From NCBI GenBank assembly GCA_951406725.2, contig OX597823.1, positions 35,650,001 through 35,714,000 of the forward strand: DNA of 64,000 nt, read 5' to 3'. The stretch is from Octopus vulgaris. Its lineage: Eukaryota. The notes below the pieces were generated by a model that worked only from the letters and a program-made list of their open reading frames with translations, did not search any database and was not told the DNA's origin. Positions 34,909 through 59,053 of this stretch are shown here, in pieces. The position numbers and the translations under genes are program-made. The stretch's first letter is position 1. Every line of letters begins with the position of its first letter.

Positions 34909-35102
34909 CATACATACGTACAATAAAGGTCAAGCTTCTTTCAGATTCCATCCACCTATTCACATAGCTTTTTTCGGCCCATTGACATAGTGGAATACTA
35001 TATATATATATATATATATAAAAAGTTGAGTTGTGGGGTATCGCACGAGTGGGATTATATAAGAAAAAAGGTTTGAAAATGCAATTTAAACGATGTTTAT
35101 TT

Positions 35103-35143
35103 ACTTAACCGGTTTCACTCTTTGGTAAAAGATTGTCAAAAGT
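35103..35143 (-). ncRNA. Minimal HHR motif (U3-A8), left arm copy
   Basis: Mirror image of 35853-35893. Confidence 0.55.
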
Positions 35144-35852
35144 TACATTTAAGGAAACATTGAATAATATGGGTTCAAAAAAGTTTTTTACATAATTGTC
35201 ACATTGAATATTATGCATTCAAAAAAGTTTTTTACATAATTGTCACATTGGATATTATGAATTCAAAAATGTTTTTTTATACATAATTGTCACATTACAT
35301 GTATAACAGCAGGCACGGACACATCTATTCACACCCGCATACTAACCTCCTGATAACCCCAAAATCATTCATGCATAAAGGGGAAGTATACACCACATTG
35401 GCTACTTCTTCTGTTCTCTCAGTTCAGCCTTTCTGCTAATACTGACAGGTCAGTAAAAACATACTTAAAATATTCTGAGATGTACAAAAAATCCATTTTA
35501 ATTTTTGCTGTCAAAACGCTGTATATATATACCAAAGATTGTATATATATACATGTAATGTGACAATTTGCGACAACCAATAATTAACGCAACCAATTCC
35601 CAATAATATATTTGTTTTATCCTTTTCTGCCAAATTTTCCCAAATATTCTCATCACACTATTGAACTTCTCTGTTACCAAACACTATATTTATACATGTA
35701 ATGTGACAATTATGTATAAAAAAACATTTTTGAATTCATAATATCCAATGTGACAATTATGTAAAAAACTTTTTTGAATGCATAATATTCAATGTGACAA
35801 TTATGTAAAAAACTTTTTTGAACCCATATTATTCAATGTTTCCTTAAATGTA

Positions 35853-35893
35853 ACTTTTGACAATCTTTTACCAAAGAGTGAAACCGGTTAAGT
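35853..35893 (+). ncRNA. Minimal HHR motif (U3-A8), right arm copy
   Basis: actt-TTGACAA-tcttt(tacc)aaaga gt-GAAA-ccgg-TT-aagt; 4-bp stem I, 5-bp stem II with 2 extra nt, palindromic stem III. Confidence 0.55.
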
Positions 35894-35932
35894 AAATAAA
35901 CATCGTTTAAATTGCATTTTCAAACCTTTTTT

Positions 35933-35968
<36 letters not shown>

Positions 35969-37791: not shown

Positions 37792-38560
37792 ACATGGTTT
37801 CATGCGGCAGGATTCAAGAAAATTTGGCCAACTACAAACATCCCACGCAGATCCTGCAGACAAGGCCTGCTGAGTGAAGCAGATGATTAGGAATGCGCTG
37901 CAGATCTCCCTGAGTGGAACGACTAACCAGAGATCATCAAGAAGACCGGCTCGAGATCCGACATAGTGCTCCACTCCCAGAATGCCAAGATCCTCCTGAT
38001 CGAACTCACTGTACCTTACGAAACCAGGAGTGAAGATGCCCATGTCTACAAGATAGAAAAGTACGCCGACTTGGCCAGAGATATGAGGGACGCTGGATTC
38101 AAAACCAATGTCTCCGCAGTCAAGGTTGGCGCCAACGGATTTGTAGGCTCATCTGGCTACAACCTCAAGAAACAACTGGCCATCTCTCGAAGAAGCAGGA
38201 CTAGAACCTTGAGAGCCATGGGAGAAGCGGCGAAGGCTTCAAGTTGGATCTGGTCTAGAAGGATCAAAGGCCAACTTCATAAGGCTTAATTTGTCCCAGT
38301 TCAAGCGAGTACCAAATTGGCGTAGTCGTGTAAACTGCGCCTCTGGAGCCGGCGATCCGGATTCGAATTCCGCTAGGTCGTCCGAGCGCTCACCAGTGCA
38401 CCCAGCTGGAAGCGGGTACTTAGCCGTTCTCAGGACCGCAGCACACGTCACAGCAGTGCTTGAAACCAGAGAAACCAATCCCACCTAAGGCGTACTAAGT
38501 CAGAGGTTAAGGGCCGAAACACTTGCCTAAAGGGGGTTTCTCCTCTGAGGACCACCTGTT
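37792..38560 (+). mobile_element. 3' end of a Hero/NeSL-like non-LTR retrotransposon (restriction-like endonuclease + 3' UTR)
   Basis: RSDIVLHS..LLIELTVPYE..EDAHVYKIEKYADL..AVKVGANGF..A.KASSWIW; starts right after a short (TA)n. Confidence 0.85.
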
Positions 38561-38579
38561 GTTACGCTCTCCCCGAGTT

Positions 38580-40551
38580 TCTCGAAGAAGGAGAAATAAG
38601 CTATATGAAATCTCTGAGCGAGATGTAAACAGTACCAATACGGAATCGTAACATAAAATTGCCAACCAAGTCTGACGTCCTATACCAGACTGTGTTACTC
38701 ATGTTTATAGACGTCTCTACCAGCTGGCTAACGACACACATTCTGTGTCCGATTAGTGTTTCTGAGGCGAGGTAAGCTCTCCCATCCGTAGCCTTATGTG
38801 ATACACAAGAACTCGAGTTTCTAGGTGGTTACCCGGCCTCCGTGAATGTTAATCATATCATAGTGATGAAAAGTCACTCCACTCGCAAAATACTATATGC
38901 TTTTCCAGCTACAAACCGTCGCTGATTTGGAAAAAGGAGAAATAAGCTATATTAAATCTCTGAGCAAGATGTAAACAGTAGCAATAAGGAATTGTAACAT
39001 ATAATTGCCAAACAAATTTGACGTCCTATACGGAATGTGCTAAAGACGTTTATAGCCCTAGGAAGATATATCTACCAGCTGGCTAACGACACATATTCTG
39101 TGTCCGATTAGTGTTTGCGAAGGAAATCAGCGCTTCCATCTCTCGCCTTATATGATACACAAGGACTCGAGTTTCTCGGTGGCTATTTGTCCAAGGGGTA
39201 TGTTAATCACCAGCTCGTGATGAAAACTCACTCCACTCGCAAAATACTAGGTTTTTCTAGCGACAAACCGTCGCTGATCTCGAAAATGGAGTAATAAGCT
39301 ATATTAAATCTCTGAGTGAGAGGTAAACAGTAGCAATACAAAATCGTAAGATGTAATTGCCAACCAAATGTGGCATCCTATATGGGACAGTGGTACTGAC
39401 GTTTATAGCGCTGGGAAGACATCACTACCAGGAGGCTAACGACAGTCATTCTGTGTCCGATTAGTATTTGCTAGAGGAGGTCATTGCTCCCATCCTTAAC
39501 CTTGTGTGATACACATGGACTCAATTTTTTAAGTGGTTACCCGTCTTTAGCGTGTGTTAATCACTAGCTAGTGATGAGAATCCACTCCACTCTCAAAATA
39601 CTATATGTTTTTTTTCCAGCGACAATCCGTTGCTGATCTCGAAAAGGTAGAAATAAGCTATTTTAATGTATGAGCGAGATGTAAACAGTAGCAATACAGA
39701 ATCGTATCATATATATGCCAACCAGCTTGGATGTCCTATACGGGACAGTGCTACTGACGTTTATAGCCCCAGGAAGACATCTCTACCAGCTGGCTAACGA
39801 CAAACATTCTATGTCCGGTTAGTATTTGTGGCGGGAGCTCATCGATCTCATCCATAGCCTTACGTACTACACACGGACTCGAGTTTCTAGGCGATTACTC
39901 GTCCTCAGTGTGTGTTAATCACCAGCTATTGAATCGTAACATGTAATTACGGAATCGTAACATATAATTGCCAGCCAAATGTGGCGTCCTATATGGGACA
40001 GTAGTACTGACGTTTATAGCACTAGGAAGACATCTTTACCAGCTGGCTAACGACACACATTCTTTGCCCCATTAGTATTTTCGAGGGGAGCTCAGTGCTC
40101 CCATCCGTAGCCTTATGTGATACAAAAGGGCTAGAGCTTCTGAGTAGTTACCCGGCTTCAGCGTGTGTTAATCACATGGTAGTGATGAAAAATCACTCCA
40201 CTTGCAAAATACTACATGCTTTTTCCACCGACAAACCGTCGCTGATCTGGAAAAAGGAGAAATAAGCTATATTAATTATCTGGGTGAGATGTAAATAGTA
40301 GCAATAAGGAATTGTAACATATAACTGCCAACCAATAATATAGCCTGTTTCTCCTTTTTTGTGGTCAGCTTCGCAATACTGATCAGCTCGCAAATACTAA
40401 TCGGACACAGAATGTATGTCATTCTGAGATGTCTTCCTGGGGCTATAAACCTCGGTAGCTTTTTCCCGTATAGAACAGCACACTTGGTTGGCAATTATTT
40501 GTTACGATTCTGTATTGCTACTGTTTACATCTCGCTCAGAGATTTAATACA

Positions 40552-52329: not shown

Positions 52330-54050
52330 CTCGTAATTCCACATACTATGGCATAAACACAGAAGCAAAGGAGCTAGCTATCTGCCTTAAGATAAAGGAC
52401 TGTGTGGACTGTCTCGCCACGTGACTCCCCACCATATTACACTTAAGGATCATAAGCCAATTTCAATTCCAACGCCAAATACAGGCGTATCAACCTCTCC
52501 AAAAGCGAAATAGGTATCAGTAGCAAGTGTATTTTTGATACTTTCAACTCTGACATCAGAAGGGATACAGGGTTGACTCATGGAACTCCAGTGCAGCTGT
52601 GATAGACTGGTTCCGCGGTATCGAGAATAAATCAGCCTGAAAATTCAGCCAGTTCAACATTGTTGACTTCCACACTTCCATATCTAAGCCCCTCCTCCTG
52701 AAGGCCCTAGCTTTTGTTGGACAATTTACCATCATTAGTGATCTTGATATCCGAACCATCATGAATGCCAGAAAGTCGAATGTTCGGTTCACAACGATTC
52801 CTCCTAGGTGATCCATTGTTTCATGTCCCTTTGGAGAATTTTGACGGGGCTGAAATCGCCGACCTCGTCAGGTTATATATCTTGGATACCCTTCAAGAGA
52901 CGTACACATCCAAATAGGTCAACCCTCTATAGGGGTGATGGCCAGACTATCTCAAGCCATATGAATGGTCACATCATGGTTAACGTCAGGAAGAACTTGA
53001 TAAAAAATATTGAAAGATTTCGGCCTGTCCATAACGGTCACTACCAACCTGATTACGGTCGATTTCTTGGACATAATATTAGACCTGAACACGGGCAAAT
53101 ACTACCCCTACAGCAAGCCTAATGAAGAAACGGTATATATCCACAAGAGCTCAAACACATCCCCCACCACTGTAATTAGAAATCTATTTTCCGGCATTAA
53201 CAAATGGGTTTCTAAACTCTCAGCCATTATGGAGAACTTTAATAGGGCCGCCCCTCACTGCAATGATGTTTTCGCTAGGAGCAGATTTTCAGAGAAGCTC
53301 ACGTATGTGGACGAACCTCAAACTCGCTGTCCTCACCCCAAGAGAATTAAAAAAGGAAAATTATCTGGTATAAATCCCCCCATTTAACCTAGAAGTATCT
53401 GCCAACGTAGCCAGGGGCCTCCTGTCGTTAATAAAGAAACACTTCCTCAGAGGCCATAAGTATTACAAACTCTTCAGCCTCCATAATGTCGAGGTAAGCT
53501 ACTCCTGCTTAGACAACATTGCATCTAACACCGCACGCATCAACAGATGTAAAGATGTGGCCACACAACCCAACCCCAATCTGCAAGTGTCGGAACTTAC
53601 CACTTCCCTCAAGGAACATCCTGCCTCTAGGAGGATCCTGACTCTAGATGGATCCTGCTTCTCAAGGGCTTTAGTATACAGAGCCACACTTACACCATCC
53701 GATGGCATTACTAGGCACTATATGGACATGACAGTCAATAACATCAAGGGAAGATACTCCTAGAATTTGCATTCCTTTAGATCTATGGACAGAGAGAACT
53801 CCACTTCCCTGTCGCACTTTCTCTGGAGACTTCGTAACCTCTGAGATGAAATATCCAACATCCAATGGACTACTGTCGACAGGGCGCCACCATATTAACC
53901 CGGTGCCCCTAATTGCCAGCTGTGTCTCCGCGAAATAGAGCATATCGTTTACCAACCCGCAGTATCTATCGACAAGAAATATGAGGCATCGTACACCTTT
54001 CTGGTAAATTTCAAGTCATTGGTCACCGACAACCCGGATATATCTCCTTA
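52330..54050 (+). mobile_element. Decayed Penelope-like element (RT + GIY-YIG endonuclease)
   Basis: TLKDHKP, INLSKSEIG, FDGAEIADLV, LYRGDG, DFLDIILDLNTGKYYPYSKPN, then DGSCFSRALVYRA..HYM.MT.N.IKGRY, STSLS..LW.L, CQLCLRE. Confidence 0.9.
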
Positions 54051-54680: not shown

Positions 54681-55853
54681 TGTTACGGAATCACCCGTCG
54701 TCGCCCGTCCCGAACGGCTCACACAAGTTCCGCCACGGAACCCAAAGAGGCGGAGAGAGGAGATACAGATAGATACTGCCACAACCCCAACAGCACAGAG
54801 ATACAGAGGCACAACCCGAGATACAACCCAAAGAGGCAAGGCAACAACTGGCAACACTGGCTTATATTCAAACAACAGTTTATACGACAATTACAATTGT
54901 TACAACATCAAGATACATCAAAGCATGCACGTGACTACTCAATACATAATACAACAGCATTTCAAGAGTACAACTCAAAGCATAATACAACATCATGTAA
55001 CAATATATCAGTCCGGAGACACAACAAGTCATATACAGTATTTCAAAGGTACACATCACAGATAACGTCACATCAACAAGTCATTTACTCTTCAACTCAC
55101 AATGTTCTTTATCGACTACATCGACAGAGTCTCTGACTGTTCTTTTCACTGTTCAATACACCGTGACACATATCAATGCACAAACACATACCTCAATTCC
55201 TAACTGAATCTGCCAGTGTCCCATTCCTCTCAATACTGCTAATTCCTCTGAATACTGCTAATTCCCTTGAATACTGCTAATTCCCTTCTGTGCCGCCAAG
55301 CTTTCTCGCATCCAACTTGCTCCTAAGAATTCCAACGCTTGCTCCTTAAATCCAAGGTCCGTCTGTCTTCTTCGAGGACCGGCCAGCGACTGCCAGATCC
55401 GTCTGTGTTCTTCGACGACCGCTCAACGACTGCCCTTCTTGACGACCAACTGCGAACTACCAGACCTCACTTCGTCTCTGTCCTTCTTCCACTCCCCTCA
55501 TCTCCCTCTGTCTATATCGCTCTTACCCTCTCTAACTGCCCTGGTCCTTATATCCTATCTATATCGCCTGCTGTCTCTTAGCCTTTCTATTTGCTCTCTG
55601 ATCTTACTGCCTATCTCTATTTGCTCTCAGCCCTCACTCTATCGCTATCGCCTGCTGCCTATCACCCTCTCACGACAGCTCTCAGATCCTTTAATCTGTC
55701 TTCCTCTTCACTTCTTCAAGGGGTGCTTAGAATGACCTCCAATTCACCCGAATCTGACAGGACAATGGGTTTATCCTAATGTAGGTCACTGGGACATACT
55801 ACACTGGCTAACCCAGGTCACTGGGACATACTACACTAGCTAAGCCCGTAACA
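54681..55853 (-). repeat. 3' LTR (1173 bp)
   Basis: TGTTACGG...CCGTAACA inverted ends; by eye differs from the other LTR by one 3-bp indel and two substitutions. Confidence 0.97.
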
Positions 55854-55866
55854 CTACCCCCTACCT
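55854..55866 (-). other. Polypurine tract
   Basis: Minus strand AGGTAGGGGGTAG immediately before the 3' LTR; contains the ORF stop codon. Confidence 0.85.
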
Positions 55867-57819
55867 AAGCTTTTGTCGACCCGACAAAGCATAACAAACT
55901 CGCACCTCCGAGCAGCAGACTCTCCAGGGGCTGGGGGTCCCCTCGGGTGGTTTCTCCTCCGGGGGTCTCACCTCCCACGGCCACCACCTCAGCACCAGCC
56001 ACAGGTTGGCACCTTCCCTCTGCGGCTTGGGTAACACCTCCGCCAACGCCGCCAGGCTTCCTACTAGCCGCCCACAATAGGCGCACCGTCCGAGGAGGTT
56101 CCTCAAATCCCTCACACAGGAAGGGTCCGGCCAATCCTTCACAGTGGCCACCTTCCTCAGGGCTCTATAGCCCACGTAGCACCTTGCTGTACCATCTCCA
56201 TTCCGCGCAATTATCGCTGACGACCACGGACCATTCTGTCCTTTCACTGCTCCCTGTCGCCGATATCTCCTCTTGCGCTGCTGTACTGGGGCCTTCCTCC
56301 GGCCTCGCTGCTTCCTCAAGCGACGACCGCCTTGGTCGACTAAACGTTCTGCCAGGTCCGTGCGACCAGCATCCAACAACCTTCGCGACCAACGTCCTGC
56401 GCTTTTCACCAACACCCGAGTGCCAACCAAGCACCGGCGACTCCCTGCGGACCGCCTCCGCAACTGCACAGGTAGACCACCATCTCCGACTGCATCACTG
56501 TATTGGCAGAACTGGCCCTGCCGCTGGTCTACCGTCCGGCGCAGTTCCACGATTTTCCCTCTGCAAATCGCCTGCGCAGCCTTCAATAACTCGGCCGACT
56601 CAACCAGCGCTCTGTCAACTTCTGCCTCCACCAGGGTCCAGCCGACCCTCAATTGAGCTCCTATTCCGCACTGCATGTCGGGCTCCACCGGCCCCACGCA
56701 ACCATCGAATACAGAGCTCCCCCAAGTGCCAACAAAGCACCAGCGACTCCTTGCAGACCACTTCCTCAACTGCATCCGTGGGCCACCACCTCCTTCCACT
56801 GCGTTGCCGTATCGGCAGAACTGGCCCCACCACTGGTTCGCCATCTGGCACGATTCCTCGATTTGCCTTCTGCAAATCGCCTGTGCCACTTCCAAAAGAT
56901 CGGCCGACCCAGCCAGCGCTCCACCAGCTTCTGCTTCCACTAGGGTCCACCCGACCCTCAATCGAGCTTTCACTAGGCACTGCCTGTCGGGCTCCACCGG
57001 CCCCAAGCAACCATCAACCACAAAGCTCACCCAACGCTGAAGCAGTCTTCCTGGTCTCAGTGGACCCACCACCGTTCGCAGCCGTCTCGCCTCGTCAACG
57101 GGCCTGGTCCTTTTCCTCACCAGCTTCCGTACCGCAGGCTTCACAACACGCACGCTCGGCCGCCAGTCCATCCACGCCTGTGGCCTCTCCACAGTGGGAA
57201 CCATACAGTCCCTCTGGGCCCCAAGAGACAGGGGTCCAGACACCAAAGGACCCGCACACAGCATAGCACCTGCCGCGACCATCACACACAGAGCCGGAAC
57301 CTCGGACTCAGCGACATTCTCCCCAGACCTCGCCAGCTCTTCGTCCTGAGCTCCGAGAGACAGGGGTCGAGATGCCAAGGGCTCCAGACACGGAACAACA
57401 GCATCAGCCATAACACCTTTCACAGGCCTTTTGGTTACTTCAACCTCTACGGGTTCCAAATCACAAGATTTCTTGGGTACAGCGTCACAAATTTCGGCAA
57501 CCAGCCCAGGTTCCGCAAACACAGCCGGTCCAGCATCACAGATTTCGGCAACACTTCCTTCACTATCTGTTTCCCTTGATGCTTCGTTCGACGGGCAATC
57601 TCTGCCCACAGGACCGTCGCTATCCTCGGTCCAACACCGATCCTTCAAAGCTGACCCATCCGCAACCTCAAGCTCCCGCTGATCTGCCCACAGGCCCTGT
57701 CGCCTCCTGTCCATTCTCTCCACGAACGCGTCCGTCTGCGCCATCTGGCCCCTTAACATCTCCACAATCAGAGCAAGCGAAATCTCCTCGTCTCCGGTCT
57801 GACAACCAGACAAATCCAT
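55861..57819 (-). CDS. ~652-aa single ORF of the LTR element; novel N-terminal part plus vestiges of Gypsy pol, no catalytic RT/RNase H/integrase
   Basis: Uninterrupted from ATG 57819 to TAG 55861. DAGRTDLAERLVDQG..KQRGRR, GPWSS....GDGTARCYVGYRAL and VKDWPDPSCVRDLRNLLGRCAYCGRLV echo Gypsy DLGRT..H.IDTG..KQ.PRR, SPWSSP..KKDG..RFCVDYR.LN and WP.P....VRSFLGL..YYRRF. Confidence 0.75.
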   Translation of the reverse strand: MDLSGCQTGDEEISLALIVEMLRGQMAQTDAFVERMDRRRQGLWADQRELEVADGSALKDRCWTEDSDGPVGRDCPSNEASRETDSEGSVAEICDAGPAVFAEPGLVAEICDAVPKKSCDLEPVEVEVTKRPVKGVMADAVVPCLEPLASRPLSLGAQDEELARSGENVAESEVPALCVMVAAGAMLCAGPLVSGPLSLGAQRDCMVPTVERPQAWMDWRPSVRVVKPAVRKLVRKRTRPVDEARRLRTVVGPLRPGRLLQRWVSFVVDGCLGPVEPDRQCLVKARLRVGWTLVEAEAGGALAGSADLLEVAQAICRRQIEESCQMANQWWGQFCRYGNAVEGGGGPRMQLRKWSARSRWCFVGTWGSSVFDGCVGPVEPDMQCGIGAQLRVGWTLVEAEVDRALVESAELLKAAQAICRGKIVELRRTVDQRQGQFCQYSDAVGDGGLPVQLRRRSAGSRRCLVGTRVLVKSAGRWSRRLLDAGRTDLAERLVDQGGRRLRKQRGRRKAPVQQRKRRYRRQGAVKGQNGPWSSAIIARNGDGTARCYVGYRALRKVATVKDWPDPSCVRDLRNLLGRCAYCGRLVGSLAALAEVLPKPQREGANLWLVLRWWPWEVRPPEEKPPEGTPSPWRVCCSEVRVCYALSGRQKLR

Positions 57820-57856
57820 AGCGAAAAAGAACCGATCGAAACGCAGCAATCAGGAC

Positions 57857-57875
57857 AATCCCACTTCTGACACCA
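57857..57875 (-). other. Primer-binding site complementary to the tRNA-Leu 3' end
   Basis: TGGTGTCAGAAGTGGGATT, 2 nt downstream of the 5' LTR; complement of the metazoan tRNA-Leu(CAA) 3' end AAUCCCACUUCUGACACCA. Confidence 0.9.
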
Positions 57876-57877
57876 GT

Positions 57878-59053
57878 TGTTACGGAAGAATCACCCGTCG
57901 TCGCCCGTCCCGAACGGTTCACACAAGTTCCGCCACGGAACCCAAAGAGGCGGATAGAGGAGATACAGATAGATACTGCCACAACCCCAACAGCACAGAG
58001 ATACAGAGGCACAACCCGAGATACAACCCAAAGAGGCAAGGCAACAACTGGCAACACTGGCTTATATTCAAACAACAGTTTATACGACAATTACAATTGT
58101 TACAACATCAAGATACATCAAAGCATGCACGTGACTACTCAATACATAATACAACAGCATTTCAAGAGTACAACTCAAAGCATAATACAACATCATGTAA
58201 CAATATATCAGTCCGGAGACACAACAAGTCATATACAGTATTTCAAAGGTACACATCACAGATAACGTCACATCAACAAGTCATTTACTCTTCAACTCAC
58301 AATGTTCTTTATCGACTACATCGACAGAGTCTCTGACTGTTCTTTTCACTGTTCAATACACCGTGACACATATCAATGCACAAACACATACCTCAATTCC
58401 TAACTGAATCTGCCAGTGTCCCATTCCTCTCAATACTGCTAATTCCTCTGAATACTGCTAATTCCCTTGAATACTGCTAATTCCCTTCTGTGCCGCCAAG
58501 CTTTCTCGCATCCAACTTGCTCCTAAGAATTCCAACGCTTGCTCCTTAAATCCAAGGTCCGTCTGTCTTCTTCGAGGACCGGCCAGCGACTGCCAGATCC
58601 GTCTGTGTTCTTCGACGACCGCTCAACGACTGCCCTTCTTGACGACCAACTGCGAACTACCAGACCTCACTTCGTCTCTGTCCTTCTTCCACTCCCCTCA
58701 TCTCCCTCTGTCTATATCGCTCTTACCCTCTCTAACTGCCCTGGTCCTTATATCCTATCTATATCGCCTGCTGTCTCTTAGCCTTTCTATTTGCTCTCTG
58801 ATCTTACTGCCTATCTCTATTTGCTCTCAGCCCTCACTCTATCGCTATCGCCTGCTGCCTATCACCCTCTCACGACAGCTCTCAGATCCTTTAATCTGTC
58901 TTCCTCTTCACTTCTTCAAGGGGTGCTTAGAATGACCTCCAATTCACCCGAATCTGACAGGACAATGGGTTTATCCTAATGTAGGTCACTGGGACATACT
59001 ACACTGGCTAACCCAGGTCACTGGGACATACTACACTAGCTAAGCCCGTAACA
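57878..59053 (-). repeat. 5' LTR (1176 bp)
   Basis: Direct repeat of 54681-55853. Confidence 0.97.

Follow-up and report, generated by a model that had tools for sequence, protein, structure and literature searches.

How does a retroelement that encodes no enzyme come to hold its whole interior open as one reading frame? The question is raised by a long terminal repeat (LTR) element of 4,373 bp on the minus strand of a 64,000-nt stretch of Octopus vulgaris DNA (assembly GCA_951406725.2, contig OX597823.1, positions 35,650,001 to 35,714,000; hereafter the window, in whose coordinates all positions are given). Its interior of 2,024 nt is filled to 96.8% by a single open reading frame (ORF) of 652 codons. 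As judged from sequence comparison, this ORF is an enzyme-less gag-pol remnant, reduced through in-frame deletion and duplication, in a long-lived Octopus family derived from Ty3/Gypsy. The frame has been kept open beyond chance and the amino acids look nearly neutral. We consider it rather probable that selection for translation in cis keeps the frame, with little regard to which protein results.

Anatomy of the element and its insertion

The features of the element are given below in the order of its own 5' to 3' direction.

54681-59053, minus strand: whole element, non-autonomous and Ty3/Gypsy-derived, 4,373 bp, in a (TA)n tract
57878-59053, minus strand: 5' LTR, 1,176 nt
57858-57875, minus strand: primer-binding site (PBS), tRNA-Leu type, with the first 12 nt identical to the Leu PBS reported in PMC8905726
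55861-57819, minus strand: single ORF, 652 amino acids (aa), gag-pol deletion mosaic
57661-57789, minus strand: predicted long helix, aa 11-53, likely the gag N-terminus; block means of the predicted local distance difference test (pLDDT) 86-97 over aa 11-50
57595-57636, minus strand: decayed CCHC zinc knuckle, aa 62-75, ahead of the pre-capsid segment
57175-57180, minus strand: junction 1, aa 214/215, pre-capsid gag fused in frame to the protease end
56721-57034, minus strand: duplication unit A, aa 263-365, spacer between protease and reverse transcriptase (RT)
56415-56725, minus strand: duplication unit B, aa 366-468, 78% identical to A in nucleotides, offset 309 nt
56158-56414, minus strand: remnant of the RT fingers (N-terminal), aa 469-554
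56005-56157, minus strand: junction 2 (at 56157) and remnant of the RT thumb, aa 555-605; palm absent
55864-56004, minus strand: C-terminal 47 aa, no homologue among the proteins compared; RNase H and integrase absent
55854-55866, minus strand: polypurine tract (PPT), holding the ORF stop codon
54681-55853, minus strand: 3' LTR, 1,173 nt, with 2 substitutions and one 3-nt indel relative to the 5' LTR

A first-pass annotation, made from the letters alone, had placed here two LTRs of about 1.17 kb with three differences, a Leu PBS, a PPT, and an ORF running from about 40 bp past the PBS to a stop in the PPT over about 97% of the interior. All of this is confirmed. The LTRs (1,173 and 1,176 nt, 99.6% identical) are direct repeats with the termini TGTTACGG...CCGTAACA, of the TG...CA type, and together with the PBS and PPT they identify an LTR element. 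The PBS starts 2 nt internal to the 5' LTR, and the ORF extends from an ATG at 57819, 38 nt past the PBS, to a stop at 55861-55863. Since the LTRs are nearly identical, the insertion is recent, as the annotation also held. The element is flanked by (TA)n with the tetramers ATAG and ATAT at its two ends, so that no target-site duplication can be called. No tRNA gene was found within the window, and all Rfam matches fell on the flanking microsatellite, below cut-off. In run X12, a loose end at the terminus of the LTR likewise continues into CA/TA repeats, a hint of a preference for insertion into microsatellites. The two bases preceding the 5' LTR are the same as the last two of the PPT.

A gag-pol mosaic in one open frame

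The length of the ORF exceeds what base composition produces: in 12,000 Markov-simulated interiors (orders 1-4, 3,000 each) the longest frame did not exceed 449 codons, and the remaining two sense frames of the element carry 33 and 17 stops. The annotation's distinction from TRIM and LARD elements was right, as their non-coding interior does not accommodate a 652-codon ORF. On the plus strand, a stop-free frame of 465 codons (55869-57266) slightly exceeds the same null maximum; lacking a Met and any Pfam match, it was rejected as a gene and treated as a by-product of composition.

Conventional searches recognise little of the encoded protein. Pfam returned no match at E values up to 10, and the set that marks an autonomous Ty3/Gypsy element (capsid, protease, YxDD-containing RT, RNase H and integrase) is not found in the ORF. 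The sole PDB match is the Ty3 RT, at a weak E of 0.67. In that alignment the part before junction 2 corresponds to about RT residues 97-121 and the part after it to residues 274-313, so that some 150 aa of the palm are missing, in agreement with the earlier reading of an RT N-terminal motif joined to the thumb. Two separate pol matches were confirmed with the 150 representatives listed, and the pol relatives so matched show the Pfam order protease, RT, RNase H, integrase, which establishes homology to Ty3/Gypsy gag-pol.

About two thirds of the ORF is pol-derived. The map of the whole was drawn from sister copies and from related Gypsy proteins of helper type, that is, proteins that keep capsid, protease or RT palm where the octopus ORF does not; the knuckle and the protease end are visible only via the sister copies. 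Residues 1-56 are likely the gag N-terminus: they match the N-terminus of a crab element weakly (pairwise E 0.13), and aa 11-53 are modelled with confidence as a long helix, the only such one near the beginning of the protein. Searched as a profile, the family N-terminus matches true knuckles first (best independent E 0.001-0.013, 138 proteins). That the decayed knuckle precedes the pre-capsid gag segment is an unusual order, which may reflect a rearrangement or a helper lineage with an N-terminal knuckle. The C-terminal end of the protease lies at about aa 215, and capsid, nucleocapsid and protease core are absent. The two segments meeting at junction 1 are apart in the helper-type protein P0164, with capsid and protease between them, and adjacent in P0010, P0022 and P0147. 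The spacer between protease and RT is a tandem duplication of 103 codons in the ORF and a single unit in P0010. A dUTPase origin of this spacer is no more than a lead: PF00692 was matched, below cut-off, by one distant relative and by 0 of 19 aligned relatives.

Taken together, these comparisons show that the ORF derives from gag and pol, not from pol alone. The view of the interior as a gutted Gypsy pol without RNase H, integrase, protease or CCHC motif thus holds for the pol remnants and for the missing RNase H and integrase; it had overlooked the gag part, the 103-codon duplication, the decayed knuckle and the end of the protease. The structure prediction that the annotation had proposed as a check yielded the helix at aa 11-53 and otherwise isolated helices. 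The mean pLDDT of the AlphaFold model is 49.7, which is weak evidence given the shallow alignment. Foldseek found no fold match with this model, a result that says little because the model is of low confidence; a search of the ESM Atlas with aa 1-215 gave an uninformative best score of 0.78.

A dispersed family with an old palm deletion

Protein searches identified 42 distinct gene models of the family, 41 labelled Octopus vulgaris and one O. sinensis. The Octopus vulgaris models are spread over at least 19 scaffolds of differing length, and one of the 42 matches the ORF of the window at every one of 158 residues. A young group is 92-100% identical, an older one about 55-65%, and still older members are represented by P0010, P0022 and P0147. 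The interior is also partly present in 20 of the 24 sequencing runs listed (three organism labels, nine studies), four of which were used for the comparison of contig pieces. Many of the Octopus vulgaris models (P0002, P0171, P0168-P0181) begin in the ORF and splice out at aa 163-185; these could be artefacts or real chimeras.

The O. sinensis model P0003 has the identical junction of fingers to thumb at 84% identity, and a contig piece of 81% identity crosses 56088-56264, including junction 2, without a gap in two runs. As this junction is shared by diverged copies, it is not a unique recent deletion; the loss of the palm is old and common to the 81%-identical copies. A further contig, 83% identical over the thumb (56008-56151), exits the element at 56151, at junction 2, and may represent a helper or another deletion form. 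These data bear out the proposal of a non-autonomous, multi-copy family and suggest that it is dispersed and long-lived within Octopus.

Proteins of helper type point to the source lineage, namely P0164, P0107 and P0077 together with the crustacean P0162, P0023, P0165 and P0021. Their identity to the ORF is 42-49% in the spacer and 43-51% in the thumb, with P0010 intermediate. A search for longer proteins found three, all partial.

Frame retention exceeds chance

Five rearrangements on the lineage of the ORF all preserve the frame: the two junctions, and duplications measuring 309 nt, 132 nt and 17 codons. The probability of this by chance is about (1/3)^5 = 0.004. Point changes lead to the same result. 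At 224 sites where the helper-type relatives agree, the ORF has changed at 114 (79 one-step and 35 multi-step changes). Under neutrality about 10 stops would be expected at these sites (0.064 per nonsynonymous change) and none is present (P(0) about 6e-5), in a test that covers one third of the ORF.

Divergent copies were also sampled as contig pieces. From the best 32 of 2,740, we retained those that lie entirely within the ORF and differ by more than 8%, and dropped near-identical pieces, repeats in other runs and pieces reaching the untranslated region (UTR) or the LTR. The 14 distinct pieces so obtained comprise 2,513 nt with 362 substitutions; 11 are gap-free, and gap letters number 3, 30 and 2 in the remaining three. 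Among indel variants, the best 12 of 73 all lie in the LTR part, a distribution that LTR depth favours. One joint in the ORF for which the inserted letters are known has a net length of 45 nt, and many whole-codon indels separate the sister proteins. Altogether, the alignments indicate that the frame was retained beyond chance, as the first-pass annotation had surmised.

Amino acids change at a nearly neutral rate

Duplication units A and B differ with a ratio of nonsynonymous to synonymous substitution rates (dN/dS) of 0.73, and their differences are distributed 22/22/20 over the three codon positions. The 22 shared variants listed comprise 18 nonsynonymous and 4 synonymous changes and no stop; with an expected synonymous share of 25-31% they do not depart from neutrality (P 0.25-0.36). 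A further block of 15 variants from one contig has 11 nonsynonymous and 4 synonymous changes. In relative-rate comparisons with a crab outgroup, private changes in the two duplicate units exceed those in P0164 by 26:5 and 16:2 (p 0.0002 and 0.001) and those in P0107 by 20:4 and 12:1. For the older P0010 the ratio is 13:6, which is not significant. Amino acids in the ORF have thus changed 4-8-fold faster than in the helper-type relatives.

The amino acids therefore look nearly neutral, with a dN/dS not distinguishable from neutral. The annotation had suggested selection on the protein, for packaging or the hijacking of helper particles, and had named frameshifts in most sister copies with a dN/dS near 1 as one result that would speak against its reading; the observed value of 0.73 agrees with the dN/dS half of this. 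That value, the deletion of the capsid and the lack of a predicted fold leave the suggestion with little support.

Why is the frame kept?

With neither capsid nor enzyme encoded, the element would depend on a helper, as follows from the Ty3/Gypsy life cycle. Transcription would start from the 5' LTR, the RNA would be translated, and the proteins of an intact helper would package, reverse-transcribe and integrate it. Under selection for translation in cis, RNAs translated to the end would be the ones copied better by the putative helper; of the two options raised by the annotation, protein or translation, the second would be the better fit. The most likely reason is that a stop at the PPT holds the 3' UTR to the length of the LTR and so avoids nonsense-mediated decay (NMD); retroviral RNAs whose 3' UTRs are long are expected targets of this pathway (PMC2925335). 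Alternatively, the passage of ribosomes might route the RNA to assembly sites; in Ty1 and Ty3 one RNA pool serves both translation and packaging (PMC4974528). Inserted copies would then decay like any dead copy, and those still transposing would be filtered for an open frame.

Several observations weigh against this account. None of the 42 family gene models covers the whole ORF. Six (P0003, P0006, P0016, P0153, P0154 and P0160) stop or lose the frame within the element, with break points near codons 151 (two models), 178, 236, 261 and 642, as deduced from the proteins and subject to possible errors in repeat assembly. Most of the others exit the element at about aa 163-185, apparently via predicted splicing, and the tail of P0010 does not resolve. 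The gene models were chosen for openness, which biases their in-frame indels. The variant evidence consists of the best 40 of 336 sites and the 12 indels mentioned above, ranked by support in a way that favours the deeper LTRs, and one of the ORF contig pieces has 2 gap letters. Exchanges of amino acids are a little more conservative than under neutrality (mean BLOSUM score -0.35 against -0.50; 3.9% of null draws), although the same comparison made with helper-type pairs overlaps and discriminates poorly, and aa 4-56 are marginally the best kept region (74-81% across older subfamilies). Helper DNA was not found in metagenome contigs or viral contigs. Finally, mini-Ty1 and mini-Ty3 elements are mobile in trans without most of their interior (PMC4974528), so that translation in cis is not a general requirement. 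The broken single copies do not decide the question, because decay after insertion predicts them.

The conserved N-terminus and the conservative exchanges would also be expected if the protein itself worked in cis, as does the fusion protein of the mouse element IAP 1Δ1. The RNA could be tethered to the helper Gag, in a sequence-tolerant manner, by the helix of the gag N-terminus or by the basic C-terminal half (lysine and arginine make up 29% of aa 469-555), and the predicted helix at aa 11-53 is a confident one. However, capsid and knuckle are lost or decayed, the neighbouring aa 139-183 are kept almost equally well (69-80%), RNA signals in the 5' region could account for the conservation there, and a helix alone has no need of 600 more open codons. 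We regard this explanation as a serious minority possibility.

It is fairly improbable that no selection on the frame is involved, the family moving whatever its frame and this copy being a lucky survivor noticed for its openness. The finding was indeed chosen for its ORF, the broken and partial models agree with such a view, and families of sugar beet hold patchy coding remnants (PMC13570524). Against it stand the stops expected and missing in just one third of the ORF, the five in-frame rearrangements, the gap-free contig pieces of 81-85% identity, and the stops that the other two sense frames did accumulate.

A benefit to the host, the 5' part of the ORF being kept open through splicing into host genes, seems very unlikely: in gene models P0171 joins choline transporter-like 1 and P0002 a RING/death-domain gene, in line with the general exit at aa 163-185, but the exit points vary as they do in predictor artefacts and the openness of aa 185-652 is left unexplained. 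A-to-I RNA editing is strong in coleoids, and editing of the element RNA might have driven A-to-G changes that alter residues without creating stops, consistent with a sense strand of 39% G, an enrichment in Arg, Gly and Trp, and A/G differences about twice as frequent as T/C differences (base ratio 1.37); we rejected this least credible explanation since polarised changes are symmetric (A>G 14, G>A 15, T>C 14, C>T 5; within the duplication G>A 9, C>T 8, A>G 8, T>C 6) and the in-frame junctions would not follow from it.

Selection for translation in cis, if correct, would turn the family into a natural experiment on selection for translatability and nothing else. An open frame in a transposon is usually taken to prove a functional protein; here a strongly retained frame goes with nearly neutral amino acids. 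Should a census of copies confirm it, the family would be a natural case of an LTR element whose RNA needs to be translated in order to propagate, a matter answered so far mainly for IAP 1Δ1. The family also accounts for dozens of 'hypothetical proteins' of octopus, and for a number of chimeric gene models, as pieces of a transposon.

Relation to known systems

The usual picture of non-autonomous LTR elements is of a non-coding or gag-only interior, and coding ones are already known (IAP 1Δ1, TR-GAG, MaLR). The closest precedent, and the best guide to how the octopus element may work, is IAP 1Δ1, in which an internal deletion created one gag-pol fusion ORF; gag and pol are needed in trans, the element is still mobile, and the in-frame fusion is reported to aid retrotransposition in cis (PMC6466679, PMC7411935). 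The octopus element shares the in-frame gag-pol fusion by internal deletion. IAP 1Δ1, however, is a class II retrovirus carrying a single deletion of 1.9 kb, whereas the octopus element is not class II, finds its best matches in invertebrate Gypsy pols, combines several successive in-frame deletions and duplications, lacks a capsid, and has changed at about half of the conserved residues.

The TR-GAG elements of plants are likewise non-autonomous, with a single ORF between the LTRs and signs of activity, but they are shorter than 4 kb and encode a GAG precursor (PMC4350172), whereas the octopus element has 4,373 bp and its capsid and nucleocapsid are deleted. ERVL-MaLR, another large group of non-autonomous LTR elements, has an internal ORF related to gag, whose function is given as unknown; one THE1D copy has an internal ORF of 464 aa (PMC11359688, PMC6466679). 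This group differs in being mammalian, related to ERV-L and without pol, and the texts cited offer nothing on selection for the frame alone. In sugar beet, 15 of 115 non-autonomous families keep partly decayed pieces of RT, RNase H or integrase, described as fragmented and patchy (PMC13570524), where the octopus element has one full-length open frame. The Steamer family (Gypsy C-clade) has a Leu-tRNA PBS whose first 12 nt are identical to those of the octopus PBS, as do related branches (PMC8905726). Its LTRs of 153-219 bp start with TGTAACA; those of the octopus element, of 1.17 kb, start with TGTTACG.

A literature search, which did not extend to entries in Repbase or Dfam, to supplements or to subscription journals, found no description of the octopus family, and the available portions of PMC6238403 and PMC10886601 contain no account of it. 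Tentatively, the family may be an LTR-retroelement counterpart of defective interfering RNAs, in which a frame filling the interior would be kept, across repeated deletions and duplications and over a span of mobility sufficient for half of the conserved residues to change, purely because translation to the PPT licenses replication driven by a helper. The likeness to coronavirus defective interfering RNAs is drawn from titles only (van der Most 1995 and Kim 1993, both cited in PMC8255065); those are RNA-virus parasites in culture, not long-evolving integrated LTR elements.

Other features of the window

Positions 52808-54015 of the window contain broken frames that have no Pfam match and that we take to resemble a Penelope-like retroelement. 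A diverged tandem array with units of about 354 bp occupies 38550-40353. At 35056-35940 lies a perfect inverted repeat of 251 nt with its arms 383 nt apart, which could be like a miniature inverted-repeat transposable element or a feature of the assembly.

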